A stretch of DNA of 63,983 nt, the filler included, from an uncultured Myxococcia bacterium (GTDB lineage Bacteria; CAZTWC01), in NCBI GenBank assembly GCA_964617105.1. It is 9 parts of 9 records of this genome, joined end to end, with 100 filler letters (N's around TTAATTAATTAA, not from the genome) between each part and the next. Parts side by side here need not be neighbours in the genome. Positions count along the whole stretch, not along the records: positions 51,308 to 58,430 come from CAZTWC010000195.1; 8 more parts are not named here. One strand, 5' to 3'. The notes beneath the pieces were generated by a model. The model saw nothing but the letters and a program-made list of their open reading frames with translations, was not told the DNA's origin and ran no database searches. The position numbers were made by a program, and so were the translations under genes. Shown here in pieces: positions 7,318 to 58,530 of the stretch. Positions within the stretch are counted from its first letter, which is position 1. The number at the start of each line of letters is the position of its first letter.

Positions 7318-7417
7318 NNNNNNNNNNNNNNNNNNNNNNNNNNNNNNNNNNNNNNNNNNNNTTAATTAATTAANNNNNNNNNNNNNNNNNNNNNNNNNNN
7401 NNNNNNNNNNNNNNNNN
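7318..7417. other. Artificial contig spacer
   Basis: N44-TTAATTAATTAA-N44; stops in all six frames. Confidence 0.99.
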
Positions 7418-11375: not shown

Positions 11376-12596
11376 ATGAGTGATACATTTTTATCGGGAA
11401 ATACCGGTCCAACCATCCAATCTGACTGCAAAGTGAAGTATTCTTCAAAAGATAGTGAAGGAAACGATATAATTTTAAATTCAAAAGTGGCGGCCCTGTA
11501 TGGCGACTCAATTGTAAAATTGGCAGCAGAGGTTTTAACGGCCATGGGTATTGACCACTGCCGCCTTGAAATCGAGGATGCCGGCGCTCTCCCTTTTGTT
11601 ATAAGCGCCAGGATTGAAGCCGCTGTAAAAATGGCTCATCCTGAAAATAAAACCGAAGTCCTCCCGGAAATGAAAAATTTTTGCACCTATAAGAGTTGGC
11701 GGAATAAATTTCGTAGAAGCCGCCTCTATTTACCTGGAAATCAGCCAAAATTGATGCTTAATGCAGGTCTCCATAAACCGGATGGCGTGATTCTGGATCT
11801 GGAAGATGCGGTTGCGCCGATAGAAAAATTTTCCGCCCGCTTGATTGTCCGCAATGCGTTGAGAACGTTGGACTTTTTCGGCGCTGAACGGATGGTCCGG
11901 ATTAATCAGGGAGATTTGGGAATGGAAGATTTAGACGCGGTTGTGCCTCATAATGTCCATCTCATTCTAATCCCCAAGGTGGAATCACCCGACCAGGTAA
12001 AGGCAATTGACACCCGCATCAATGCTATCAAGAGAGAATGCCAAAGAGAAGAGCCAGTATTTTTAATGCCTATTTTAGAATCTGCCATGGGGGTTCTCAA
12101 TGCTTTGCAGATTGCCCAGTCCAGTCCCAACATTGTTTCCCTGGCAATTGGCCTGGAGGATTATACAGCTGATATTGGCACCTCCCGCACCCTGGAAGGG
12201 ACTGAATCATTTCTGGCGCGCTCCATGTTAGTAAATGCGGCCAGGGCTGCCGGTATTCAAGCAATTGACACGGTTTTCAGCGATGTTGGGGATATGGAGG
12301 GCTTGCAAGAATCGGTGCTGGAGGCCAAGGGACTGGGATTTGACGGTAAGGGTTGTATTCATCCCAGGCAAATCAGCGTTATTCATCAGGGTTTTGCGCC
12401 TTCTCAAGCAGAAATCACTAAAGCCCAGAAAATTGTATTCGCCTTTGATGAAGCAGAGAAAAAAGGGCTGGGAGTTGTTTCTCTGGGTTCCAAAATGATC
12501 GATCCTCCGGTGGTCAAACGAGCTATCCGCACTATAAATTTGGCTGTAGATAGCGGTATTTTAGCGTCAAACTGGAAGAGTGCCTCAGGACAATAA
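11376..12596 (+). CDS. citE: Citrate lyase acyl carrier (gamma)-beta subunit fusion, CitD-CitE
   Basis: N-terminal ~90 aa CitD-like (QSDC, LYGDSI, IEDAGALPFVISARIEAA), then RRSRLYLPGN, LDLEDAV, GLEDY, GKGCIHPRQ, KMIDPPV. Confidence 0.9.
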   Translation: MSDTFLSGNTGPTIQSDCKVKYSSKDSEGNDIILNSKVAALYGDSIVKLAAEVLTAMGIDHCRLEIEDAGALPFVISARIEAAVKMAHPENKTEVLPEMKNFCTYKSWRNKFRRSRLYLPGNQPKLMLNAGLHKPDGVILDLEDAVAPIEKFSARLIVRNALRTLDFFGAERMVRINQGDLGMEDLDAVVPHNVHLILIPKVESPDQVKAIDTRINAIKRECQREEPVFLMPILESAMGVLNALQIAQSSPNIVSLAIGLEDYTADIGTSRTLEGTESFLARSMLVNAARAAGIQAIDTVFSDVGDMEGLQESVLEAKGLGFDGKGCIHPRQISVIHQGFAPSQAEITKAQKIVFAFDEAEKKGLGVVSLGSKMIDPPVVKRAIRTINLAVDSGILASNWKSASGQ

Positions 12597-12607
12597 GGAA
12601 GAAATCG

Positions 12608-14170
12608 ATGAAAGACAATCTTGAATTTATAAAAAATGCAGCGGGAAGGATAGTCCCAACCATGGTAAATGGTAGAGAATCAGTTGCCTATAAAGGGATT
12701 GGAAAATACCGGCCCCAAGGTAAAAAGGCAGCGCCACCTGTGGTTGCCTGTCAGGATTTTCCGCCAAATGGCGACAAACGCAAACCTTCCCTCAAGGAAG
12801 CATTGGTAGCCTGTGGGCTTAGGGATGGTATGACCATCTCTTCCCACCATCATTTTAGGAATGGTGATTTACTAATGACCCAGGTTTTCGACATTGCCGC
12901 TGAATTGGGGGTAAAAGATTTAATGTGGTTCCCTTCTGCGGCTTTTCCCTGTCATGAGCCTCTGATCAAACACCTTGACAGCGGTGTCATCCGCTGGATT
13001 GAAGGCTCCCTCAATGGCCCTCTGGGAGATTATGCTTCTTCCGGAAAAATGAGTGGGCTTTCGGTTTTAAGAAGCCATGGCGGCAGGTGGCAGGCAATAC
13101 AGGATGGTGAGGTGCATATAGATATCGCCATTTTGGCGGCGCCTACCGCCGATTGCTTTGGCAATGCCACCGGAGATCGGGGTCCGTCAGCCTGCGGTTC
13201 TCTGGGATTTGGCCTGGCCGATTCTATTTATGCTGATAAATGCATCATAGTTACTGACAATTTGGTGCCTTTCCCTTGTTTCCCCTGGCAGATCCAGGGG
13301 AATAACGTAGATTATGTGGTCGAATTGGACAAGGTGGGCGATGCTTCGAAAATCGTCTCCGGCACCACAAAAATAACCAAATCTCCTGACCGGCTCCTAA
13401 TCGCCGAACAGACTGCCCAGTTTATAAAAAAAGCAGGGATTATGCGTGATGGATTTAGTTTTCAGGCTGGAGCCGGGGGCACTGCCCTGGCCTTTGCCAT
13501 GTTTCTGAAGCAGATGATGAAAGAGGAAAAAATAAGGGCCCGTTTTATTCGCGGCGGTTCGACCAAATACCTGGTTGAGATGCTGGAAGAGGACCTTACT
13601 GACTATATTTTGGACGGTCAGACCTTTGATTTAGAAGGTGTCCGCTCCATGAGAGAAAATACCAATCATGTGGGCACTTCGCCCTTTACTTCTTACAACT
13701 GGCATGGAAAAGGAAATTTTGCATCCATGGTGGACTGTCTGGTCCTGGGAGCCACTGAAGTTGACCTTAATTTCAACGGAAATGTGGTTACCCATTCTGA
13801 CGGTAAACTGCTTCATGGAATCGGTGGTTGGCAGAATTGCCTTTCCAGTAAATGCACCATTTTGGCCATCCCTTCATTTAGGAACCGGATCCCTATAATT
13901 GTTGACCGGGTAACCACCCTGGTTGGCCCTGGAGAACTTATTGACGTAGTAGTAACAGAGCGGGGTATCGCCATCAATCCGTCCCGGCAGGATTTGATTT
14001 CGGCCACCAGTAATTCTGGTTTGCCAATTCGTCCAATCGAGGAAATTAAAGAGGAAGTGGATGACCTTTGCGGCGGTTCTGTCCAAAAGCCTGAATTCAC
14101 CGATGAAATTATCGGGGTGGTGAAGTGGGTGGATGGAACAGTGCTGGATACTATCTTTAGAGTTAAATAG
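12608..14170 (+). CDS. citF: Citrate lyase alpha subunit (citrate-ACP transferase)
   Basis: DGMTISSHHHFRNGD, RSHGGR, SFQAGAGG, DVVVTERGIAINP. Confidence 0.95.
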   Translation: MKDNLEFIKNAAGRIVPTMVNGRESVAYKGIGKYRPQGKKAAPPVVACQDFPPNGDKRKPSLKEALVACGLRDGMTISSHHHFRNGDLLMTQVFDIAAELGVKDLMWFPSAAFPCHEPLIKHLDSGVIRWIEGSLNGPLGDYASSGKMSGLSVLRSHGGRWQAIQDGEVHIDIAILAAPTADCFGNATGDRGPSACGSLGFGLADSIYADKCIIVTDNLVPFPCFPWQIQGNNVDYVVELDKVGDASKIVSGTTKITKSPDRLLIAEQTAQFIKKAGIMRDGFSFQAGAGGTALAFAMFLKQMMKEEKIRARFIRGGSTKYLVEMLEEDLTDYILDGQTFDLEGVRSMRENTNHVGTSPFTSYNWHGKGNFASMVDCLVLGATEVDLNFNGNVVTHSDGKLLHGIGGWQNCLSSKCTILAIPSFRNRIPIIVDRVTTLVGPGELIDVVVTERGIAINPSRQDLISATSNSGLPIRPIEEIKEEVDDLCGGSVQKPEFTDEIIGVVKWVDGTVLDTIFRVK

Positions 14171-14690: not shown

Positions 14691-14790
14691 NNNNNNNNNN
14701 NNNNNNNNNNNNNNNNNNNNNNNNNNNNNNNNNNTTAATTAATTAANNNNNNNNNNNNNNNNNNNNNNNNNNNNNNNNNNNNNNNNNNNN
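14691..14790. other. Artificial contig spacer
   Basis: N44-TTAATTAATTAA-N44. Confidence 0.99.
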
Positions 14791-22564: not shown

Positions 22565-24448
22565 ATGAGTAGAAAAAAACCAATAATCGAGCCGCGCATC
22601 GACCTTAAGGTTGGTTTTGACTGTAATAACCAGTGCCTGTTTTGTGTACAGGGCGACAAAAGGGAGAGGATTAAGCCCCGCAGCGGCCAGAAACTGGTGG
22701 AGATCCTGCGGCAAAATGCCGGCAAGGTTAAAGCGGTGGTTTTTACCGGCGGCGAACCCACCATACGCAACGATATTGTCAGCCTGGTTAAACTGGCCAA
22801 ATCTTTGGGGTACACAACCATCCAAATTCAAACCAATGGAAGGCGTTTTTGCTATCTCCCCTTTGTTAAAGCCATAAAAGAGGCCGGCGTCACTGAAATT
22901 TCACCGGCTCTACACGGCTCTACCGCAGAAATTCACGACCAATTGACCCTGGCGGCAGGCTCTTTTGAACAAACTGTGGCTGGAATCAAAAACGGAATAA
23001 AGATGGGTCTAAAGGTAATAACCAACAGCGTGGTGGTAAAAGGAAACCTGACTGACCTGCCAAAATTGGCCAAATTGCTGGTGGCCTTAAAAGTCGATCA
23101 ACTGCAGTTCGCCTTTGTCCATCCACTAGGAACGGCGAGAAAACTCTTTGATCAGGTGGTGCCTCGTTTCAGCCAGGCTCGCCCCTTTTTGCATAAGGCT
23201 CTGGATATTACCAGGGCAGCCGGGATATTAACCTATACCGAAGCGGTTCCTTACTGTTTTATGTCTGATTACGAAGAGCATGTGGTAGAGGAAGTAATAC
23301 CTGATACCAGGGTAATAGACAAGCCCACAATCATTGACGATTATACCCAATACCGGCTAAATCAGGGGAAAGTAAAAACCGAGAAATGCGGGCAATGCAA
23401 GTGGAATCAAAAATGCGAAGGACCCTGGCGGGAATATCCGGAACACTACGGGTGGGATGAATTTGTGCCAATCGAGGAGACTTTTCAGACCCCTGATTGT
23501 GATCTTTGCTCCTTTCAATATTTTTGCAACGGCTATCCCAGGTCATTTTCAGACATTCAGGAGACAAAACCAACTCCCATTACCACCCCCATAGAAAACT
23601 GTCTGGTAGGGAATAAAGTATCTTTGAACCATCCTGAACTCATACTTCGGGAATCGAATTTACTGTTAAAAGTTGATGAACAAATTTTCCGGCTGCCCGC
23701 ACATCCTCTTTTTACTAATCAAAAGGTGAGGGATATCATTCAAAAAGGACAGGTCTACTTAAAAAACCAACCCGGACCAGTGAAAAATTTTCAAACTGAC
23801 CTGCAGCGTTTAACCATTCAATTAACTCCAGCCCAGGAGAACACCTTTGAGTTGGAAGAGACCATACTCATTAGAGAGTTAAAAAAAATAAAAGGCCCTA
23901 TACTGGATGTGGGTTCAGGAGATCCCTTTTACCTGCCCCTGTTTAAAGAAAAGGTAGCATCAGGAGATATCCAAAATCATGCTGTGGAGCCTGATCTGGA
24001 AAAATGCCAACAACTAAAAGATGCTGAGCCAAATTTCCAGGTTAATTGTCTCGATTTTGAACAGAGTGAATATCCAAAAGAGTTCTTTAACTTTATCCTG
24101 GTCTTACGCTCCTGGAACCATTTCAATAATATCCATCAGGCCATAAAACTGTTTAAAAAATACCTAAAGCCAGATGGAACTCTGCTAGTTGTGGATAATA
24201 TTCCTTTTATTCTTTTAGAAGCAAAGCCGGAAACAGATGATTACCTGCCGGCAAATTCGATTGATGACGAAAATCTGGAGAGGTTTCGGTCAGCAAAGCA
24301 CGGCACCCAAAAGGGTCCGGAGCACTTTCGTAATCACCATCTAAAAACCGCCAAACGACTACTGGAAAGGTACGGTTTTAAAGTACAACCATTTTATGAA
24401 GTTGGTTTCTCTACAGCAAACCAATGGTTTTTACAGGCCAGGAAGTAG
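22565..24448 (+). CDS. Radical SAM protein (HxsC-like) fused to a class I SAM methyltransferase
   Basis: CNNQCLFC, FTGGEPT, IQTNGR, CGQC..CEG; second CDLC..CNG; ILDVGSG, LRSWNH, LKPDG. Confidence 0.85.
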   Translation: MSRKKPIIEPRIDLKVGFDCNNQCLFCVQGDKRERIKPRSGQKLVEILRQNAGKVKAVVFTGGEPTIRNDIVSLVKLAKSLGYTTIQIQTNGRRFCYLPFVKAIKEAGVTEISPALHGSTAEIHDQLTLAAGSFEQTVAGIKNGIKMGLKVITNSVVVKGNLTDLPKLAKLLVALKVDQLQFAFVHPLGTARKLFDQVVPRFSQARPFLHKALDITRAAGILTYTEAVPYCFMSDYEEHVVEEVIPDTRVIDKPTIIDDYTQYRLNQGKVKTEKCGQCKWNQKCEGPWREYPEHYGWDEFVPIEETFQTPDCDLCSFQYFCNGYPRSFSDIQETKPTPITTPIENCLVGNKVSLNHPELILRESNLLLKVDEQIFRLPAHPLFTNQKVRDIIQKGQVYLKNQPGPVKNFQTDLQRLTIQLTPAQENTFELEETILIRELKKIKGPILDVGSGDPFYLPLFKEKVASGDIQNHAVEPDLEKCQQLKDAEPNFQVNCLDFEQSEYPKEFFNFILVLRSWNHFNNIHQAIKLFKKYLKPDGTLLVVDNIPFILLEAKPETDDYLPANSIDDENLERFRSAKHGTQKGPEHFRNHHLKTAKRLLERYGFKVQPFYEVGFSTANQWFLQARK

Positions 24449-38134: not shown

Positions 38135-40299
38135 TTATGTGTATGGAAATATTGGGTCTTTTTGCACAGCGCCCAAAATTACCGTATTTTCAACTGAATA
38201 TTCAGAACCTGTTATTTTCAATAACGATTTAATAATCTCATTTAAATCCACAGGTAGTCCTTTTTTAAATTTAAAATTTCCTCTGAGATTGATGTGCCGC
38301 CAGGCGACAGGGGATATTTTTTTCAAAATATTTGCTTCCTCATGCCTTCCTTCATCTATTAATTGCTCATAGAGTTTAGAAATGATCCAAATATTGTAAA
38401 AAATGATACAGTTTGCAACCAATCTGGAGCAATCATCCCAAATCTGCTGTTCCTGCTCTGTTTTTCCCTAAATTTTCCAGAGTAGGCATAAGTCACCGCT
38501 CTTTTTAATTTATGGTATGACTCATTACGATTAAGCGCCCTTTGAACACCATGCCTCAGAAGGAGGTCATCTACATATTTGAGGATATAAATACTATAAA
38601 CGATATCATTGAGTTCCCGTATTGCTTTTTGAGTTTTATTCTTTTTAGCGTGGGAACTCAACTTCCTTACAATAATGCTTTGGGTTGTAGTTTTCAACGC
38701 CAGGGATGCCATGATCCGTAAAATGTTACCTGCTTCCTCAATGATACGTTGCGTTTTCACCTTTCGACTCGGTTTTATAAGGCAATCTTTGTATTCTCCA
38801 GGGCTTTTAAAACCGCAAATTTTAGCGGCTTTACTCCTTAATCCCTTATACCTGGGAGCGAACATATAATCAAATAAATACAGCAGTATGTGGTTGATAT
38901 TATTGGTGCCATGAGTGTCGGTGGAGTGTCGGTCAGGTTTGATCTCGGAGGTATTGTTAAACAAAATATCAAAAACGTAATGACTTTCAGACTCGTTAGC
39001 ACCAATAATTTTAGCATTGATAGGGACATGATTAGCTGAAAGGGATAAAGAAGTCACCCCTTCCTTTAATCCGAAATATTTTGGTGAGTAACGGGCGTTT
39101 ATTGTCTTTATTTGGGTCTCAAATTTTTGACCATCACTGCTGGAATGGATGATGCCCTCTTCTATGTCGTAATTACTAAAAAACGGATTTTGTGCGATTG
39201 CATTGCTGATCATATCATTGGCGTTTCTGAGAGTCTCTAGACGGATAAAATTTTTTGCTGTGGAATTTAATGTATGGGAATTAATGTCTGATATTTCTCC
39301 CATGGTATTGAGACCCGTATTTGTGGCAAGGGCAATTATTCCCGCGATAATAGTTGAATTGTCAGCCTGGCTTTTCACATACCTGCCCAATTTATGAGTA
39401 AACGCTTCTAAAAATCCACATTGTTCATTAACAGCATGCAGTAAATCTCCGATTCCAACCTGCGGAAGATGGCTGTAAAAGGAATGATTTTCGGTATCTT
39501 CTGGTTTCTTATATGGAAGGCTCCATTTAATATTATCTCCCTTTCCTGTAATCTTTATCTGTTTATTTTGTCCATCTTTGATTCGCTTATTAACTGTTAT
39601 AATAAGGGTTTCCAGTTCTTTTTCCAGTTGAGCCAGCAACTCTTCAATCGATATTCTCAATCGAGGATAATCAATTGATTGAAGAATACTTTTCCAGTTC
39701 TCTTCCCATTGTTTTCTCTCAATCAGTTCATCTTCAAAACTTCGAAATTGTGTGCTGTCAGAACAATACACATCACCGGATTGAATTGCGCTTTGTAATA
39801 ATTGATAAATTAGAAATTCATATTTGTCCGTGTCTAATTGCTTCTCCTTTCGCTCTTTTCCATTCCCTTCATTTTGCCCAGTCTTATATAAATAGCGCCG
39901 AACCTTTTCAGGAATAAAATCTTGTGGAATATCATCTGTTTTAAATTGGCTGAGGCTTTTATTCTTTTTGAGAGATGATTTCAGGAATTCAACAGCCTCT
40001 ACTAAATGATCATCTATCGTTTGGCTTTCAAGGTCAACAGCTAGAAAGGGAGGGCGCAAGTTCATCTTGAAGGCTTGAGAACAGTTGTTGTAGTGATCCC
40101 ATTCATATTCAACCTCATCGAATGAGGCTTTGGACATGTATTTGCTAATAGAAGGGAATTTGGCCCTTTCTAGAATACCAAAGGCCACGTGTCTTACCTC
40201 ACCGAACTCGGTTTCATCAGAGATATTTTCATCTGTAAAAAGATGCCATACTTTACTAGCGAACTTTAGGTTTTTGTTGTTTTCTATTTTTAGTTTGTA
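38135..40299 (-). pseudogene. tnpA: Tn3-family transposase, 5'-truncated and frameshifted
   Basis: SSDGQK, HSTDTHG, FAPRY, ALNRNE; frameshift at the A5 run 38461-38465, alternate frame continues EQEQQIWDDCSRLVANCIIFYN..ISPVAWRHINLRG; N-terminal third missing. Confidence 0.9.
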
Positions 40300-40324
40300 T
40301 AAAGTGGACCCCTTTGTCAAGACA
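40300..40324. mobile_element. Putative IS3-family-like terminal inverted repeat at the Tn3 truncation point
   Basis: TAAAGTGGACCCCTTTGTCAAGACA where tnpA similarity stops; palindrome CCCCTCCTCCGGAGGAGGGG at 40360-40379; no partner end seen. Confidence 0.45.
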
Positions 40325-40606
40325 AAAATTAGGGTGGTAAATGGCAAACCTGAGACCACCCCTCCTCCGGAGGAGGGGGCTCCCAAAAACGGACTTAAGA
40401 GGTAGTATCTGATGGTAATGGAATATACATACAGATTCACTGTACGTACTTATTCAAATATGTGCACTTTTAATTGTCGTCACTATCTCTTGTCTTTAAT
40501 TTTTATTCTTTCGTTCGGTTTACTGGTTTTCTTTTTTTATATAGTGGCAACCAGAGCAAACTACAAAAGTGGCTTACCTTATTTTGAAAATGAGCAAGAG
40601 GAGTTA

Positions 40607-51307: not shown

Positions 51308-51868
51308 GGCTCCCAGTTGGTCACGCCAGTTAAAAAAGGCTTCAATTTTTTGATTCAGGTGATCAAGGTGGTTTCTTCCCTTTAATTTAAAATAGGTGTC
51401 TGGATAGGCAGCATCAACACTGATAGTAATATCGTCTATTCCTGACTGAAGGAGTTTTAATGCCCGTTTTGTGTCCAGAAGAGTTCCATTGGTGTTGAGA
51501 TGAATAGTTTTGGCCACATTTTTCTCTTTGGCATATAGGACCATCTCCGGCAATTGTTTATGCAGTAGAGGCTCACCATCTTTGTGGAGATTAAGCATGG
51601 TTAGTTGAGGGTATTGACTAGCCTCATCAACCAGTTTTTTAAAACTCTTAAGACTTAAAAAATTGGTCCCCTGCAATTTGGCAGTCTTATCTCTTGGGCA
51701 GCAACAGCATTTTAAATTACAGGAATTGGTGGGCTCGATATTAAGCACTAAGGGAAAATCAATGTTTATATTTTGTCTGATAAACTCTGGTTTCAGGCAA
51801 GTCAGTGTCCCCTCCACATAATCGGGATTCATCTGCCGGTAATATTTTTTGGTTTGTCCGCGTCCCAT
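51308..51868 (-). CDS. Radical SAM protein (3'-partial)
   Basis: IEPTNSCNLKCCCCPR, GEPLLH, NTNGTLL. Confidence 0.92.
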
Positions 51869-51890
51869 TTTTTTGTAATAAAAACTCTTA

Positions 51891-54071
51891 CTAAAAGTTT
51901 AAGGAATCTATTAGATGTCGGGCTGCCTGGTGATCAGGGCACATTGCCAGACACTCTTTGAGATGTTTTTGGCAATCAATATTAGACCCAAGTTTATGAT
52001 AAATAAATCCCAGGTGATAGTGGGCGCCAAAGATATATCTCTCTTCAATAAAATGACCGGTTTCTTCAACCAGGAAAAGCATTTGTTGAAACATCTCTAC
52101 TGCCGAATCATATGCCCCCAATCTTTCCAAGACACTGCCATTTTTATAGAGGGATAGAAAATGGATATGGGGCTGAATATCTTTATTGCTGAGCAATTCT
52201 CTCAGTTGAGCGGCGCAGTTCTCCAATTGGTTATCTTTTTCAAAATAACTAGCCTGTTTAAAAAGTAAATAGATTTTTTCCCTCTTGGCTATATCATTTC
52301 TTGATAATAACTTTTCTGTTCTTGATTTGGCCTGAGTAAAGTCACCATCTTTTTCCATTGTCTCCAAAATGATCATTTGAGTGGACCAAAAATCGTCCTT
52401 GGATTCAATAGAGTTTTCCAATGCGTCAACCATGCATCTTATAGTTTTATGATCAGAATTGGTACTCAATATCTGTTGGGTAAATTCAATTCCTATCTGT
52501 TCTTTGATCTTATTAAAATCATCCATTAACTCTATTTGATTATCGGTTTTCACCCCATTTTGATATAGATGTTTATCAATCAAGTTGTGAAGGTATTTCG
52601 TGGCTGTCTTCTCATCACTACCAAACAGCAGGGCAAAATAGGCGTAACAGCCAAAGCGGATAAAATCTCGGTCAAGAACATGAAAAGGATCAAAGATAGT
52701 ATCCATATTTTCAGGTTTGAAAAATCTTTGGCAGCATTGCTGAAAAGCAGATATCTTATGGTGCCGGATAAAAGAATAAATCTCTTCAAGGGGCCGAGTG
52801 GAGGCATTTTTTATAACCTGATTATAACAATCTATAGATTCTAAAAAATCATTAAAATCATAATCTTTAAATTCCGGATCAATTACCACCATAAGTCGGT
52901 AAATTTCGGAAATGGAATTGTAATAAAGGCACTTAACCATCCACTCATTTTTTAACTGTTCAAAAGTTATATCTCTGACACTCTCCTTTATTTTAAGCAA
53001 TTCCTGTTCCAATTTGTCTTCACTGTATTCAAAATCAAACTTAATAAAGGGCAGTCGTTTATCCTGGTCAAAAATAGTATAAACAGTTTCAATTATATCG
53101 GCAATTCTCTTAGAAGCGTCAAAGTAGGGGATCTCTTTTTGCAACAAATCTGGGGGAATTATTTGAGGATTTTCCAGGTAGGCGGAGATATCTTTATAAG
53201 AAACTCTTAAATTGTTTTGGCTAAGAAAATCATCTTTGGGCGGATAAACAATACCGTCTTCCCTTTCTCGGTCATATGGGTAATCTGAAAGTAGAATCAA
53301 AGGTTTGTTATTAACTGCTGCCTGCCATAAAACCGTGCAGTAAATTCCCATAATAATATCAGCTTCAGCGGCCAATTCGTGAGTCTGGCGGCAATCATTA
53401 TTTATTATTAAATTGGCAGGAGTGCTGACCTTAACCAATGACTGATATGATTGATAGGGAAAGTGATTATAGATATTTTCATCAGAGAATCTACCTTTAA
53501 TAATAAAATCTATTTCCGGGTGCTTTAAGGCCACCTTTTCCAGCCAATTAAAAAAAATCACCCGATTTTCTGCATTAATTGGCGAACTGTCCGGATATAA
53601 AACTGTTTTTCTCCGGTTTTTAGGACGATTTTTAATAAAAATATCTGCCCCAGGCATGCCAACTATGGGCAAAGGATTTTTATATATATTTTTATAATAC
53701 TTTTGACAAAGATTAGCGGTGGTAAAGAGATTGTTGCCGGCCATCATGTGGAGATGACTGAGTTTAACTCTCTCTTTTGCATAAACTCCTAGATAGGGAT
53801 AACAACTAAAATATTTATGGAAATGTTGATCACGAAGAGGATAGGAATCAAAAAGGATCAGGTCTAAATCAATTTGTTTGAGTTTTGATAAACTTGTCTC
53901 TTTTTCGTTATGGTGTTCAAGAATGTTTTTCAACATTTTGCTGTTCAGTTGTTGTTCATCAACAGCACAATAGGTGTGGTGTCCTCTGTTGCGTAACTCC
54001 CGCAGAATTGGAACTGCAGCATGAATTTGAGAATCCCCAAAAGGGACAAAACCGATAGATAATGGATTCAT
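51891..54071 (-). CDS. GT-B-like glycosyl/glycerophosphotransferase domain fused to TPR repeats
   Basis: IVGMPGAD, ADIIMG..TVLWQAAVNNKP, DASKRIADII; C-terminal TPR (AHYHLGFIY..CPDHQAA). Confidence 0.6.
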   Translation of the reverse strand: MNPLSIGFVPFGDSQIHAAVPILRELRNRGHHTYCAVDEQQLNSKMLKNILEHHNEKETSLSKLKQIDLDLILFDSYPLRDQHFHKYFSCYPYLGVYAKERVKLSHLHMMAGNNLFTTANLCQKYYKNIYKNPLPIVGMPGADIFIKNRPKNRRKTVLYPDSSPINAENRVIFFNWLEKVALKHPEIDFIIKGRFSDENIYNHFPYQSYQSLVKVSTPANLIINNDCRQTHELAAEADIIMGIYCTVLWQAAVNNKPLILLSDYPYDREREDGIVYPPKDDFLSQNNLRVSYKDISAYLENPQIIPPDLLQKEIPYFDASKRIADIIETVYTIFDQDKRLPFIKFDFEYSEDKLEQELLKIKESVRDITFEQLKNEWMVKCLYYNSISEIYRLMVVIDPEFKDYDFNDFLESIDCYNQVIKNASTRPLEEIYSFIRHHKISAFQQCCQRFFKPENMDTIFDPFHVLDRDFIRFGCYAYFALLFGSDEKTATKYLHNLIDKHLYQNGVKTDNQIELMDDFNKIKEQIGIEFTQQILSTNSDHKTIRCMVDALENSIESKDDFWSTQMIILETMEKDGDFTQAKSRTEKLLSRNDIAKREKIYLLFKQASYFEKDNQLENCAAQLRELLSNKDIQPHIHFLSLYKNGSVLERLGAYDSAVEMFQQMLFLVEETGHFIEERYIFGAHYHLGFIYHKLGSNIDCQKHLKECLAMCPDHQAARHLIDSLNF

Positions 54072-54100
54072 TTTTTTGCCGTTATAAAATGTCAGGGAAT

Positions 54101-54952
54101 TTAAATACCTGTTTGAAGATTAGCGGTTAAGATTCGATTGTAAAGAGAGTCACTTATAAATAGTTGCCGGTTTTTATTATAGTAACAGATAGAGATTGGA
54201 TGAATATTTTTTCCAAAAGCAGTGGTAATTTGAAAAATATTTTTCTCCCCAACCTTTTTTATTAGTGACCGTTTTTCATAATCACAGATATATAAATTGT
54301 TCTCTGATAAATAGGTGCCTATCGGATATTTAACATCAGAAACATAATTATAATTTCTAATTTCAAAATTATCAGAGAGCTTTATCTTGGTAACCCGATT
54401 TGCCTTGGGTTCACTAACCAAAAGATTATTATCAAAAAATTTAATTCTGGCCGGACAGGTAAGGATATCTTTGCCAAAATCGGTGATAATATCTCCTTGA
54501 CGGTTAAATACCGATATCTTCCCTAAAATCATATCAGAGGCAAATAGATGATCTTTATGTTCTGCCAAACCGGTAAAACAGTTACAGTAATTAGAAATAT
54601 TTATCTCTTTTTCAATTTGGCCATGGGAATTTATGATTAAAATAGATTTACGGAAATGACAGCAAAGGGCAATAGTTTCATCAGATAAACAGATCATGTC
54701 CACAGCATAATACTGTTCTTCCGGATCTGACCAGAACACAGAAAAACTATCTGTTTCCAGATCTATTTGACAAATACGATAATTTTTAGCGTCCAAAACT
54801 AACAAATTTCCCTTTGGATTGATAACTAACGCCTGGACATTGTTAAATTGCCAATCACCTTTACCCGTTTGACCGAATTCACGCTCCCATTTAAATTGGC
54901 AACTGTTTTTTATTTTAATGGCACGCTCTTTTATTGATTCTAAATTGTTCAT
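54101..54952 (-). CDS. NHL-repeat beta-propeller protein
   Basis: FGQTGKGDWQF, VLDAKNYRI, VSEPKANRV, ISDSLYNRI. Confidence 0.8.
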   Translation of the reverse strand: MNNLESIKERAIKIKNSCQFKWEREFGQTGKGDWQFNNVQALVINPKGNLLVLDAKNYRICQIDLETDSFSVFWSDPEEQYYAVDMICLSDETIALCCHFRKSILIINSHGQIEKEINISNYCNCFTGLAEHKDHLFASDMILGKISVFNRQGDIITDFGKDILTCPARIKFFDNNLLVSEPKANRVTKIKLSDNFEIRNYNYVSDVKYPIGTYLSENNLYICDYEKRSLIKKVGEKNIFQITTAFGKNIHPISICYYNKNRQLFISDSLYNRILTANLQTGI

Positions 54953-55005
54953 ACATAAACCTGATTATCTCTAGTTCTTGGACGGCAACCTATCTATTAA
55001 AAAAT

Positions 55006-55758
55006 TTAAGTTGTAGTAGTAAATTGAGGTGAAAAAACTGTTTTTATGCCAATGTCACCCATCTGCTTAAATATCCTCTCCAATTCCTTTTGATGATTAT
55101 TATCAATCTCTTTATTTCCATTGCCAACAAAAAAGTGAGAACAGCCAAAATTTTTACGGCAAAGGGCATGAAACACGGTTTCCCGGGATCCTGAATATCT
55201 GGGAATATAGGCAAATCCTGATAAAAATGCTTTTTCCGGTTGATAATGACTTTTTATAAATTGGCGGTATTTGTCAATAATTATACACTCACTATATTGA
55301 TTTTTATTATCAAGGCACATGCCTTTAACCATTGGATGAATAAAGATGCCATCACCGCCAGAACTTTCCAGAGCGCTTTTTTGAAGTTTATGGTCTTCAA
55401 AAATTGGTAAGTCGGCTGAATGCCAGGCAATTATTTTTTGCCAGCCCATATTTTCAAACAGTAGCCTGGCATGATTGGCAGTAATATGGTTAGGCATTAT
55501 ACTGTCGCCGTTATTGGCGTCAAAAAGATAAACCTTGCCCCCTATCAGAAAATTACCTCTGTTTAACAATTTAGAAACCCCTGGATGATTATGCGGTTTT
55601 CCTCCAAACCAAAGAGGAATAAGGTGATCAAAAGAGAGGGGGGTTATTTGTTCAATCTCCATTAAGGCAAAATCTTTTCCTTGATAGGATAGAACTACTT
55701 CACTTCTGCTTTCAATTTTTAACTTTTCAACTTTATTTGATTTTACAATGTCCAGGAT
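55006..55758 (-). pseudogene. sat: ATP sulfurylase (Sat) catalytic part, out of frame with the upstream fusion and degenerate
   Basis: Frame open upstream of the ORF-track ATG (ILDIVKSNK..); RYSGSRETVFHALCRKNFGCSHFFVG; QTRNPxHxxH replaced by HSADLPIFEDH. Confidence 0.75.
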
Positions 55759-57497
55759 GTTCCATTGGGAAGAGTAAAGTTTTTAAGAACAGAATTAACT
55801 TGTTCAACTGTCATAAAACCGGTAATGGGGGAAAATGACCCAGTAGAAATATGATAGGCATCCAGCATAGTCTGCAGATCCACCGGTATGCGCTGGCAGT
55901 TTTGGTATTTACTGATCATATCCGGATTAATTATCTGTTGAACAAGTTGGTTACCATGAGGATGAGGCAAAAGCGAGATGGGCTGAATATTGGTTACATC
56001 CTGCTTATTTTCAAACCAATCTTGATAATGAGCAATAATTTTGGCCACTCGGTTGGTGCATAGGATAGGATAATCGCCAATGGCTGTTTCAGCAGCCATA
56101 ACCAACCCGTCAGCCCCATCCAGCAGAGTATTTACCACATCATTTACTTCTGCCCGGGTGGGACGTTTTTCTTTAATCATGGTTTCCATCAAATTGGTGG
56201 CCACATATGCCGGTTTTGATGACTGGTTAGCGGTTTTTATAATCATTTTTTGATAAAAAGGGATCTGCTCCAAAGGCACTTCTCTGGAAAGATCACCCCG
56301 ATCAATCAAGATAGAATCAGATGCATCTATTATTGGCTGAAGGTTTTTAATCCCCATAATACTTTCAATCTTTGAGATAATATGGGAACCTTCTCCCGCT
56401 AAATCTCTCAGCATCTCAACATCTTGAGATCTCTGGGCAAATGAGAGAGCAAAATGTTTAACTCCCATCTCCCGGCCTTTTTTAATGGACTGTTTATCTT
56501 TTGGACTAATGGGTGGTAAATAGATAGATCTGCTGAGATTAACAGCTTTATTACTTCCAAAGGTTCCTGAAATCCGTACGCAGGTGGTAAGATAATCCTG
56601 ATTTTTATCCATTACCTGCAGGATTACAAAATCTTTGTCAATAAAGATCAGATCACCTTTGTTTACTTTGGTGATTATCTCTTTTGGTGTAATGGTAAAG
56701 CCATCTTTATTGCCTAAAACATGTTCACGATAAATTTTAACAAAACAGTTCTCTTCCAATTCCGCCAGATTATTTTCTAATTTTCCGGTGCGGAACTGGG
56801 CTCCTTCTAAGTCGAGACAAATTGGTGTGCTGGTATATTTTTTAATGTAATCAATCTGCTTTGGCAGATCTTCTATGCTGGTGTGGGATAGATTGATGCG
56901 AAAAAGATCAACACCGATCTGATCCAGGCGGGAGATAACTCTCTGATTTAATGATGCCGGTCCCAGAGTGCAGAATATTTTTTTTATTCCCAAATATTTT
57001 AAAATAGTATTGATGGACTGGTCTACTTTTTGATAACCAGTATCGATTTTTAAGTCTGGTGATTCCGGCTCTTCAAAGGGGATTGAGGAGTTAAAGCCAA
57101 TAAGGTTATCAATTTTACCTTCCATGGCCAGGCTATAGAGCCCTTTGGTATCTCTTTTAATAAGAATATCCATATCAGAATGAAGATAGATCTCAAAATA
57201 GTTCTGGCCAAATTCAATTCGGTTTTGGGTCCGGCTGGAATTAAAGGGAGTTATAACTGATACAATTATGTAGTCACGGTCTTGATATTTTTGGCACATT
57301 TGCCTGATTTGACCGTGATTTTTCTTTATATCCTCATAAGAAAAAGTCAATTTTTGTGGATAGTGCTTACGAATTGTGTCGCCATCAAGGATTTTAACCG
57401 AGTATCCTTTATTAACTAAAGTTGTTTCAACCCCTTTTGCCAGGGTAGATTTTCCGGTTCCCGACATCCCTGTAAACCATAGAATTTTTGCTTTCAT
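55743..57497 (-). CDS. Fusion: adenylylsulfate kinase + pyruvate kinase + N-terminal part of ATP sulfurylase
   Basis: WFTGMSGTGKST, LDGD, DTKGLY (CysC); CTLGPAS, RINLSH, SKIES, RGDL, PTRAEVND, AETAIG (PK); PHG, GSFSPITGFM, LPNGTSW (Sat PUA-like). Confidence 0.9.
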   Translation of the reverse strand: MKAKILWFTGMSGTGKSTLAKGVETTLVNKGYSVKILDGDTIRKHYPQKLTFSYEDIKKNHGQIRQMCQKYQDRDYIIVSVITPFNSSRTQNRIEFGQNYFEIYLHSDMDILIKRDTKGLYSLAMEGKIDNLIGFNSSIPFEEPESPDLKIDTGYQKVDQSINTILKYLGIKKIFCTLGPASLNQRVISRLDQIGVDLFRINLSHTSIEDLPKQIDYIKKYTSTPICLDLEGAQFRTGKLENNLAELEENCFVKIYREHVLGNKDGFTITPKEIITKVNKGDLIFIDKDFVILQVMDKNQDYLTTCVRISGTFGSNKAVNLSRSIYLPPISPKDKQSIKKGREMGVKHFALSFAQRSQDVEMLRDLAGEGSHIISKIESIMGIKNLQPIIDASDSILIDRGDLSREVPLEQIPFYQKMIIKTANQSSKPAYVATNLMETMIKEKRPTRAEVNDVVNTLLDGADGLVMAAETAIGDYPILCTNRVAKIIAHYQDWFENKQDVTNIQPISLLPHPHGNQLVQQIINPDMISKYQNCQRIPVDLQTMLDAYHISTGSFSPITGFMTVEQVNSVLKNFTLPNGTSWTL

Positions 57498-57512
57498 AAG
57501 ATACCTTTAAGA

Positions 57513-58430
57513 TTATTCTGTTACAACATTTCCCACTTGTTTGGTTACTGCCCGGTCACAAACAGAACAGCACTTTATATCTTTGGCCTGGTGCTGTAAA
57601 TGGATCTTACGGGCTTTGTCCATGTTATCTCCATGCCATAAATCGTAGATATTATCCTTTTCCAAATCTCCTAGTTGATAATCACATTTTTTATCTGCTA
57701 TGCATAGAGGAATTTTTCCGTTCCACATAATGGTGATCCGCTGAAAAGGGTATTGACAGGTGAAATTTGGCCTAAGTTTTTTTTCTTTTCGATCATAGGC
57801 ATATTCCGGAGTGAAAGTCATATAATCCACAAAGGGATTGAAAAATTGGTACATCTTATTGAACCAGGCTAAATCCTTATGTTTTTGCCAAACGCTGTTG
57901 ATCCTGATACGGGGGAAACCATTGCCCATACTGTCGCGCAGTTTTCGTAGATCTTTTAGCCTTTTAACCGTGCCTTCAAAGTTGGAGGGATCTCTGACCC
58001 GATTGTATTCTTCTTCTAACCCATCCACCGATATGGTGATATAATCAACTCCGGCTTTAACAATATCTCTGGCCAAATCTCCATCTAATCTATATCCGTT
58101 GCTGATAAAAGAGATCTCTTTTATCCCTTTTTTCCGGGCGTAGTTGATCATCTCCACCAGATAAGGATTGACCGTGCATTCACCTTTCCAACTAAGGCGA
58201 ATGGAATAGAGATTATATTTAACACATTCATCAATCCCCTTTTTAAAAATTTCTAAAGACATATTGCCAAAAAGAGATGGGTCATATTCACTGCGGGACC
58301 TGAAACACATGGGGCAGGTCATGTTGCACAGAGAAGACACTTCAAAGTCAACATGCAGGGGAAAAACAGGCACAACATGCCTTTTGGGATAATAGTACCA
58401 TTCCATCCGGTTTTTCAGGTAAGCTAAAGG
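57513..58430 (-). CDS. Radical SAM/SPASM-Twitch protein (5'-partial)
   Basis: CNMTCPMC; CQYPF..PLC..CSVC C-terminal cluster motif. Confidence 0.92.
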   Translation of the reverse strand, partial: PLAYLKNRMEWYYYPKRHVVPVFPLHVDFEVSSLCNMTCPMCFRSRSEYDPSLFGNMSLEIFKKGIDECVKYNLYSIRLSWKGECTVNPYLVEMINYARKKGIKEISFISNGYRLDGDLARDIVKAGVDYITISVDGLEEEYNRVRDPSNFEGTVKRLKDLRKLRDSMGNGFPRIRINSVWQKHKDLAWFNKMYQFFNPFVDYMTFTPEYAYDRKEKKLRPNFTCQYPFQRITIMWNGKIPLCIADKKCDYQLGDLEKDNIYDLWHGDNMDKARKIHLQHQAKDIKCCSVCDRAVTKQVGNVVTE

Positions 58431-58530
58431 NNNNNNNNNNNNNNNNNNNNNNNNNNNNNNNNNNNNNNNNNNNNTTAATTAATTAANNNNNNNNNNNNNN
58501 NNNNNNNNNNNNNNNNNNNNNNNNNNNNNN
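58431..58530. other. Artificial contig spacer
   Basis: N44-TTAATTAATTAA-N44. Confidence 0.99.

Follow-up and report, generated by a model that had tools for sequence, protein, structure and literature searches.

ATP sulfurylase (Sat) makes adenosine 5′-phosphosulfate (APS), and APS kinase (CysC) converts APS and ATP into 3′-phosphoadenosine 5′-phosphosulfate (PAPS) and ADP. The bifunctional PAPS synthases, exemplified by Sat-CysC from Aquifex (PDB: 2gks) and by animal PAPSS1/2, carry both enzymes on one polypeptide. Here, we analyze a locus in which homologs of these two domains are joined to a pyruvate kinase (PK) barrel; it occupies positions 55006–57497, on the minus strand, of a 63,983-nucleotide stretch of DNA (the window) from an uncultured Myxococcia bacterium (GenBank: GCA_964617105.1). 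The same three activities have been brought together in in vitro PAPS cascades, in which chemists mix separate enzymes and include PK with phosphoenolpyruvate (PEP). One such report states that, owing to a dead-end enzyme-ADP-APS complex of APS kinase, PAPS barely accumulates unless the PK/PEP module is present (PMC9885120). Relief of this ADP/APS dead end is the reason stated there for adding PK, and it is the same reason that we propose for a coupling made by natural fusion.

APS kinases tied to a sulfurylase homolog that has lost substrate binding are described for Thiobacillus denitrificans (PDB: 3cr8) and for Entamoeba histolytica (EhAPSK), and in EhAPSK the non-catalytic domain modulates APS kinase activity. 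At the window locus, the kinase domain is intact and the sulfurylase motifs are lost, but the two parts lie in different frames. Neither precedent includes PK, and their sulfurylase-like domain is N-terminal and complete, whereas that of the window is C-terminal, short, and frameshifted; 3cr8 itself is a weak match of the latter (E = 1.4e-4). Compared with the bifunctional PAPS synthases, both the CysC and the Sat-like domain of the window are homologous to theirs, and intact relatives of the window protein likewise have Sat and CysC on one polypeptide, but the family adds a PK barrel, and in the window the order is CysC-PK-Sat with a catalytically dead Sat part. The two window pieces score 131.9 and 80.8 bits against NF004040, for which the cut-off is 669. 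The A and B domains of the barrel and the aligned catalytic motifs are shared with canonical PK (PykF/PykA and PKM), but the C-terminal effector domain is absent. With moderate confidence, we read the locus as a lineage-specific CysC-PK-(Sat-like) member of a wider PK-Sat/CysC family, that is, as an APS kinase that is fuelled by PEP, retains a sulfurylase-like domain only as a vestige, and belongs to a glycan-modification operon.

Two kinase domains and a sulfurylase-like remnant

The first open reading frame of the locus (ORF1; 584 amino acids, 55743–57497, minus strand, as are all features of this locus) contains, by Pfam, an APS_kinase domain, a PK barrel, and the start of a PUA_2 domain. 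The CysC domain comprises residues 1–170 (56988–57497; PF01583 match over residues 3–152) and is followed by the PK A+B barrel at residues 173–478 (56064–56981; PF00224, 242.3 bits, profile 5–325 of 328) and by the N-terminal half of the sulfurylase PUA-like domain at residues 512–584 (55746–55964; PF14306, 47.4 bits, profile 2–78 of 159). The latter ends with LPNGTSWTL, followed by a TAA stop codon at 55743–55745. The PK C-terminal domain (PF02887) was not found in ORF1 with Pfam at E ≤ 0.01; the barrel is joined directly to the PUA-like domain of Sat, and ORF1 has full-length homology to the PK-Sat/CysC family (43% identity to P0002 over 597 residues and 50% to P0008 over 414). The remainder of the sulfurylase-like region lies at 55006–55740, where 244 codons are open and an ATG at 55662 gives a 218-amino-acid frame, ORF2 (55006–55662, with the frame open back to 55740). 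This remnant contains the end of PUA_2 and a PF01747 match (89.9 bits) that reaches only profile positions 6–156 of 212. ORF2 is in the −1 frame relative to ORF1, and tblastn with three full-length relatives returned pieces in frames −3 and −2 that abut at 55746. Pfam and tblastn therefore bear out the architecture given in an initial annotation of this DNA, namely CysC, a PK barrel without its C-terminal domain, and the start of Sat, with the rest in another frame.

Both kinase domains retain the features of their families. In CysC, GMSGTGKST (57444–57470), LDGDTIR (57369–57389), and KRDTKGLY are present, which we take to represent the P-loop (GxxGxGKS/T), DGDxxR, KGLY, and lid motifs of APS kinases. 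The domain is above the curated cut-offs of PF01583 (125.6 versus 21.1 bits) and TIGR00455 apsK (145.7 versus 138.7 bits), and it keeps 27 of the 30 columns that are at least 85% conserved across 60 family CysC domains or genes, the changes being L>M, G>T, and Y>F. In the PK barrel, 69 of the 72 positions with at least 90% conservation across 119 relatives are unchanged. The barrel can be aligned motif for motif with human PKM: FRINLSH with ARLNFSH, LDLEGAQFR with LDTKGPEIR, GSNKAVNL with GSKKGVNL, ISKIES with ISKIEN, DRGDLSRE with ARGDLGIE, ATNLMETM with ATQMLESM, and PTRAE with PTRAE. These motifs presumably bear the catalytic Lys, Glu, and Asp residues together with the phosphate-binding (Arg/Asn/Ser) and K+-binding residues. 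The PK catalytic motifs reported initially are thus present, as judged both from alignment with solved PKs and from conservation within the family, although the barrel falls under the full-length equivalog cut-off of TIGR01064 (281.1 versus 306.4 bits). The best reading of these sequences is that the CysC-PK pair alone would still be catalytic in the window protein, and we infer that the two kinases are enzymatically coupled.

The sulfurylase-like part presents a different picture. AWHSADLPIFEDHK (55387–55428) stands where sulfurylases have FQTRNxxHxxHE, and GCSHFFVGNGNKEID (55102–55146) stands where they have GCxHFIVGRDHAGVG. Against a solved ATP sulfurylase (PDB: 8a8d), AWHSADLPIFEDH of the remnant is aligned to AFQTRNVPHLGHE and FFVGNGNKEID to FIVGRDHAGVG, so that HSAD, FEDH, and GNGNKE occupy the positions of the catalytic motifs QTRN, HxxH, and GRDHAG. 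The alignment stops at chain position 322 of 385, approximately 63 residues short. Compared with its relatives, the remnant ends approximately 68–75 residues early and its C-terminal domain is absent, with 53 nt separating its stop codon from the next gene. In the covered part, 24 of 56 family-conserved columns are changed and a further 7 fall in the missing tail; TIGR00339 scores 91.7 bits against a cut-off of 322.95. Median identity to the relatives is 32% for the remnant versus 52% for the PK domain of the same locus, whereas the corresponding values for a typical member, P0008, are 53% and 52%. Because the motifs are lost, the tail is gone, and identity is low, the sulfurylase part seems to be under relaxed constraint; on these grounds it cannot be catalytic, and this copy cannot make APS. 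A −1 frame that stays open for 244 codons at 36% GC has a probability of approximately 1e-8 from composition. Motif loss therefore took place in a domain that translation still reached, and the interruption of the frame is either a recent event or not genuine.

Homology and reading frames place the break at 55734–55772, where the frame shifts by −1 after SWTL. The P(I/V)xx that is conserved after the Trp in relatives is missing here, and the distance from that Trp to HPGV is 60 residues, versus 63–67 in the 45 relatives (of 119) picked up by the search pattern; the 74 that the pattern did not match were left out of the count. In this divergent region, a deletion of 3n+1 bases would fit better than a single miscalled base. 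Public marine and seawater metagenome runs (four runs from two studies, as Logan unitigs at approximately 2–5x) were used as a read check; two of the four look like one data set, and the runs may be the source of the assembly itself. Unitigs identical to the window lie on both sides of the break. The CysC-PK junction (approximately 56987) is spanned by unitigs at 56898–57154, 56935–57085, and 56595–56995 and the PK-PUA junction (approximately 55997) by unitigs at 55746–56026, 55910–56126, and 55984–56136, all without differences. No unitig crosses 55734–55745, the site of the stop codon and frameshift, and similar gaps are frequent along the stretch. We consider a genuine frame break and an assembly error to be about equally probable.

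A widespread family of PK fused to Sat and CysC

When 5.8 billion proteins were searched, 6,742 of 8,000 scored candidates were matches, and the best 120, including the window protein, were classified by domain BLAST. They comprise 84 PK-Sat proteins (654–741 amino acids), 29 PK-Sat-CysC proteins (546–946 amino acids), 4 PK-CysC proteins (504–518 amino acids), and 3 with the order CysC-PK-Sat (ORF1, P0002, and P0020). The initial annotation was to be refuted if no other genome carried the fusion; in fact, each of the other 119 proteins in this set joins PK to Sat and/or CysC. The closest relatives are 43%–51% identical to the window protein. Source names include Candidatus Omnitrophica, Nitrospina, Doudnabacteria, Parcubacteria, and Woesearchaeota, among others, and the proteins are annotated merely as "sulfate adenylyltransferase" or "pyruvate kinase." The family PK has characteristic changes at DTEGAQxR, DRGDLSRE, and LAAETA.

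Most members retain the sulfurylase motifs. Among 116 aligned segments, 99 carry the canonical (Q/H)T(R/K)N...HxxH and GRDH motifs and 11 differ at one position. Degenerate segments were seen only in the window, P0057, P0111, P0080, partly P0002, and the internally deleted P0009; outside the window, full motif loss is confined to a few members, P0057 and P0111, and is partial in P0080 and P0002. In P0009 (546 amino acids), the PUA-like domain abuts the C-terminal half of CysC, and the sulfurylase core and the kinase P-loop are deleted, a second case of decay in the family.

A tree of PK domains places the window protein within the bacterial PK-Sat clade, to which it has approximately 50% identity, on a long branch of 0.82 changes per site and apart from P0002 and P0020. 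Its N-terminal CysC fusion, an arrangement that is rare in the family (3 of the best 120), therefore arose independently. The four PK-CysC proteins group together in a single clade that branches from within PK-Sat; this clade represents a separate loss of Sat and offers a precedent for PK plus CysC as a working unit. The window copy, with its independent fusion, is degenerate, and its APS kinase-pyruvate kinase pair is all that remains intact. Because this pair is kept where the sulfurylase decays, as it is in the PK-CysC clade, we argue that kinase-kinase coupling is the part of the fusion on which selection has acted.

Relatives are encoded by 235 pattern matches in species-representative genomes, of which 80 were kept. 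These 80 loci are spread over many phyla, and the cultured carriers among them include Mesorhizobium, Ensifer sp. BR816, Nitratireductor, Methyloversatilis universalis FAM5, Thauera sinica, Pseudaminobacter, and Salsipaludibacter. Gene neighborhoods (five genes on either side) were compared for 72 loci; the other eight, all high-GC, were dropped when a simple ORF caller did not recover the PK-Sat gene. Neighbor clusters, named by the Pfam matches of their representatives, were led by cysC (24 of 72 loci), which is usually the next gene directly downstream (19 loci). Sulfotransfer_3 proteins (18 loci), NAD-dependent epimerases/dehydratases (17), a Na_H_Exchanger-family membrane protein (16), GT4 glycosyltransferases (14), ABC exporters (11), short-chain dehydrogenases/reductases (8), two Wzy_C clusters (8 and 7), and sulfatases (7) follow. 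The sulfotransferases and glycosyltransferases are neighbors that the initial annotation had proposed to look for around homologs. The Na_H_Exchanger-family protein could be a sulfate or counter-ion transporter of the cassette. An Omnitrophota metagenome-assembled genome (L001, 1413–4206) encodes a 193-amino-acid cysC product 31 nt upstream of a 726-amino-acid PK-Sat gene, the unfused counterpart of the domain order in the window.

A separate canonical PK was found in five of five cultured carriers, scoring 340–383 bits versus 224–237 for the fused PK. This extra, higher-scoring enzyme and the sulfation context together suggest that the fused PK is an accessory paralog tied to surface-glycan sulfation. 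PK-Sat/CysC is a genuine and widely distributed variation on the PAPS-synthesizing machinery that has apparently gone unstudied: no paper on PK fused to ATP sulfurylase or APS kinase was found in the full-text literature outside subscription journals and supplements, in agreement with the earlier statement that no characterized enzyme of this architecture was known to its author.

A proposed PEP-fuelled APS kinase and the alternatives

In the intact family, Sat would make APS and CysC would phosphorylate it to PAPS. The fused, regulator-less PK would then run toward ATP formation, using PEP and the ADP released by CysC to make ATP beside the kinase. In this way PK could both supply ATP locally and clear the ADP that traps APS kinase as the enzyme-ADP-APS complex, and the PAPS would pass to sulfotransferases that decorate surface polysaccharides. 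Since PK and PEP are needed for PAPS to accumulate in vitro, according to the cascade report (PMC9885120), we read the fusion of PK to Sat/CysC as a permanent ADP-recycling coupling. The window copy would depend for its APS on a sulfurylase encoded at another genomic site. By analogy with the Thiobacillus and Entamoeba APS kinases, its sulfurylase-like tail may have acted as a scaffold or regulator before the frameshift, and this tail would now be interrupted, either truly or by assembly error. If correct, nature has repeatedly built in the PK/PEP regeneration of ATP that biochemists add by hand to PAPS synthesis, and PEP, besides ATP, powers sulfation. Such a compact, one-protein PAPS generator would be of biotechnological interest. 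The window locus alone is a degenerate member on a low-coverage marine contig; the family occurs in cultured rhizobia and betaproteobacteria, which makes the idea of PEP coupling directly testable.

Several points weigh against this reading. No sulfotransferase, sulfurylase, or sulfate transporter was found on the 7.1-kb contig that carries the locus or in the 64-kb window, and when sulfotransferase, Na_H_Exchanger, sulfatase, Sat, CysC, and PK seeds were searched by tblastn against the whole window, the locus alone matched; the window thus reveals neither an APS source nor a PAPS-consuming enzyme. Over its 7.1 kb, the contig has a glycan-type transferase and radical S-adenosylmethionine (SAM) genes without a sulfotransferase. 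PEP-driven PAPS synthesis as the family function is read from sequence and context, no published assay having been found. In PK-Sat proteins without a fused or adjacent CysC, the partner of PK yields no ADP, so recycling of ADP is not an explanation for every architecture. The long PK branch of the window protein (0.82) is also compatible with decay. A genuine frameshift would leave ORF1 with only half of its PUA-like domain at the end, and the folding of that half may be doubtful.

The initial annotation had proposed a self-fuelling PAPS synthetase. At the family level, this proposal gains support from the fusions, the PK motifs, the sulfation context, the extra canonical PK, and the need for ADP removal in the in vitro work. 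A self-contained synthetase in this copy, with active Sat, CysC, and PK split only by a sequencing error, is very improbable. Its three domains are recognizable, intact three-domain relatives exist (29 PK-Sat-CysC and 2 other CysC-PK-Sat proteins among the best 120), and the frameshift lacks read confirmation, but even when read through, the Sat part has WHSAD..FEDH for QTRN..HxxH and GNGNKE for GRDHAG, ends some 63 residues before that of 8a8d, and falls far below the TIGR00339 cut-off. Programmed −1 ribosomal frameshifting could join the two frames, given that the offset is −1 and both frames are open over the junction. However, by eye the stretch that runs from the stop codon upstream in the −1 frame to the ORF1 TAA has no in-frame X XXY YYZ heptamer, the homology shifts exactly at SWTL/TAA, where approximately 4–5 conserved residues are also missing, and none of the 119 relatives needs a shift. 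Programmed frameshifting was rejected for want of a slippery site and in view of the conserved residues lost where the frames meet, and we give it almost no weight. It is also unlikely, though less so than either of these, that the whole gene is a decaying pseudogene without remaining function. The frameshift, the short and motif-less Sat part, the long PK branch, the lack of a close relative (best identity 43%–51%), and the visible deletion in another family member, P0009, all fit such decay, but ORF1 runs through 584 open codons and retains 69 of 72 PK and 27 of 30 CysC conserved columns, a gap of 15 nt separates it from the gene before it in a compact operon of six ORFs, and even the −1 frame is open for 244 codons.

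The remaining alternative, to which the initial annotation also pointed, concerns the substrate. Cj1415 is a 3′-kinase for cytidine diphosphoramidate in Campylobacter, and CysC-PK could similarly act on a non-sulfate donor, as a 3′-kinase for another nucleotide-linked group that feeds a TagF/DUF6716-like transferase with radical SAM tailoring. The dead sulfurylase and the lack of a sulfotransferase on the contig would fit, as would the product of the candidate transferase gene (51891–54071, minus strand), a 726-amino-acid protein that resembles transferases of phospho-groups and capsule and carries tetratricopeptide repeats (TPRs). Its nearest ESM Atlas clusters are Glyphos_transf (0.93) and DUF6716/Capsule_synth (0.92), and a Campylobacterota Glyphos_transf plus TPR cluster (0.87) gives a lead only. 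Its family is very rare: an exhaustive search of 1.84 billion representatives found only 25 proteins at E ≤ 1e-3, self included, of which 16 match PF20471 and one is fused to a radical SAM domain, a further point in favor; a word-based search returned the query alone. On the other side, CysC is above the apsK equivalog-domain cut-off and resembles the family CysC that accompanies active sulfurylases, and the family context elsewhere is sulfation. A metagenome scan with a two-sequence alignment of the 726-amino-acid family found two distant partial matches (L081 and L082), neither with the other genes of the operon. We regard a non-sulfate donor as distinctly unlikely, and the fuller scheme built on it is more doubtful still: a PEP-driven 3′-kinase would make another 3′-phosphonucleotide donor for the DUF6716/TagF-like TPR transferase, with two radical SAM proteins for tailoring, as a new surface-glycan modification pathway that would be analogous to, yet distinct from, Campylobacter phosphoramidate synthesis.

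The surrounding operon and other features of the window

The window is a chain of nine contigs of gradually falling length, joined by linkers of the form N44-TTAATTAATTAA-N44. There are 16 N44 runs, paired around TTAATTAATTAA, with one pair per approximately 7.2–7.3 kb (7318–7417, 14691–14790 ... 58431–58530). Because the contigs were joined, genes on opposite sides of a linker are not genomic neighbors, and the true genomic context of the fusion is limited to 51308–58430 (7,123 bp). All genes of this contig are on the minus strand with spacers of 15–53 nt and form the six-ORF operon.

The first operon gene, as far as the contig extends, encodes a 297-amino-acid radical SAM/SPASM protein (57513–58406; Pfam Radical_SAM, 65.5 bits, and SPASM, 35.5 bits) and lies 15 nt upstream of the fusion; no NCBIfam model reached its cut-off with this gene. 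Downstream of the sulfurylase-like remnant, after 53 nt, is a gene for a 283-amino-acid NHL-repeat protein (54101–54952; PF01436, 31 bits). It is followed by the gene for the 726-amino-acid DUF6716-like/TagF-like protein, a putative glycosyl- or phospho-transferase over approximately residues 1–500, with matches to TPRs at its C terminus. The last is a second radical SAM gene that is cut by the contig end (51308–51868; PF04055, 57.9 bits), for which all NCBIfam radical SAM/SPASM models score under their cut-offs. With a GC content of 0.35–0.39, this contig lies below the remaining contigs of the window (0.40–0.49) and could represent a foreign island or a binning error.

Elsewhere in the window, a homolog of Tn3-family transposases at 38359–40440 (minus strand) scores 446 bits against a cut-off of 500, covers profile positions 305–892 of 954, and is probably 5′-truncated. 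Citrate lyase genes at 11376–14170 (plus strand) include citF, preceded by a 406-amino-acid ORF in which the regions for citD (acyl carrier) and citE are combined. A 627-amino-acid radical SAM protein at 22565–24448 (plus strand) is closest to HxsC4 (167 bits against a cut-off of 500) and is approximately twice the length of that model.

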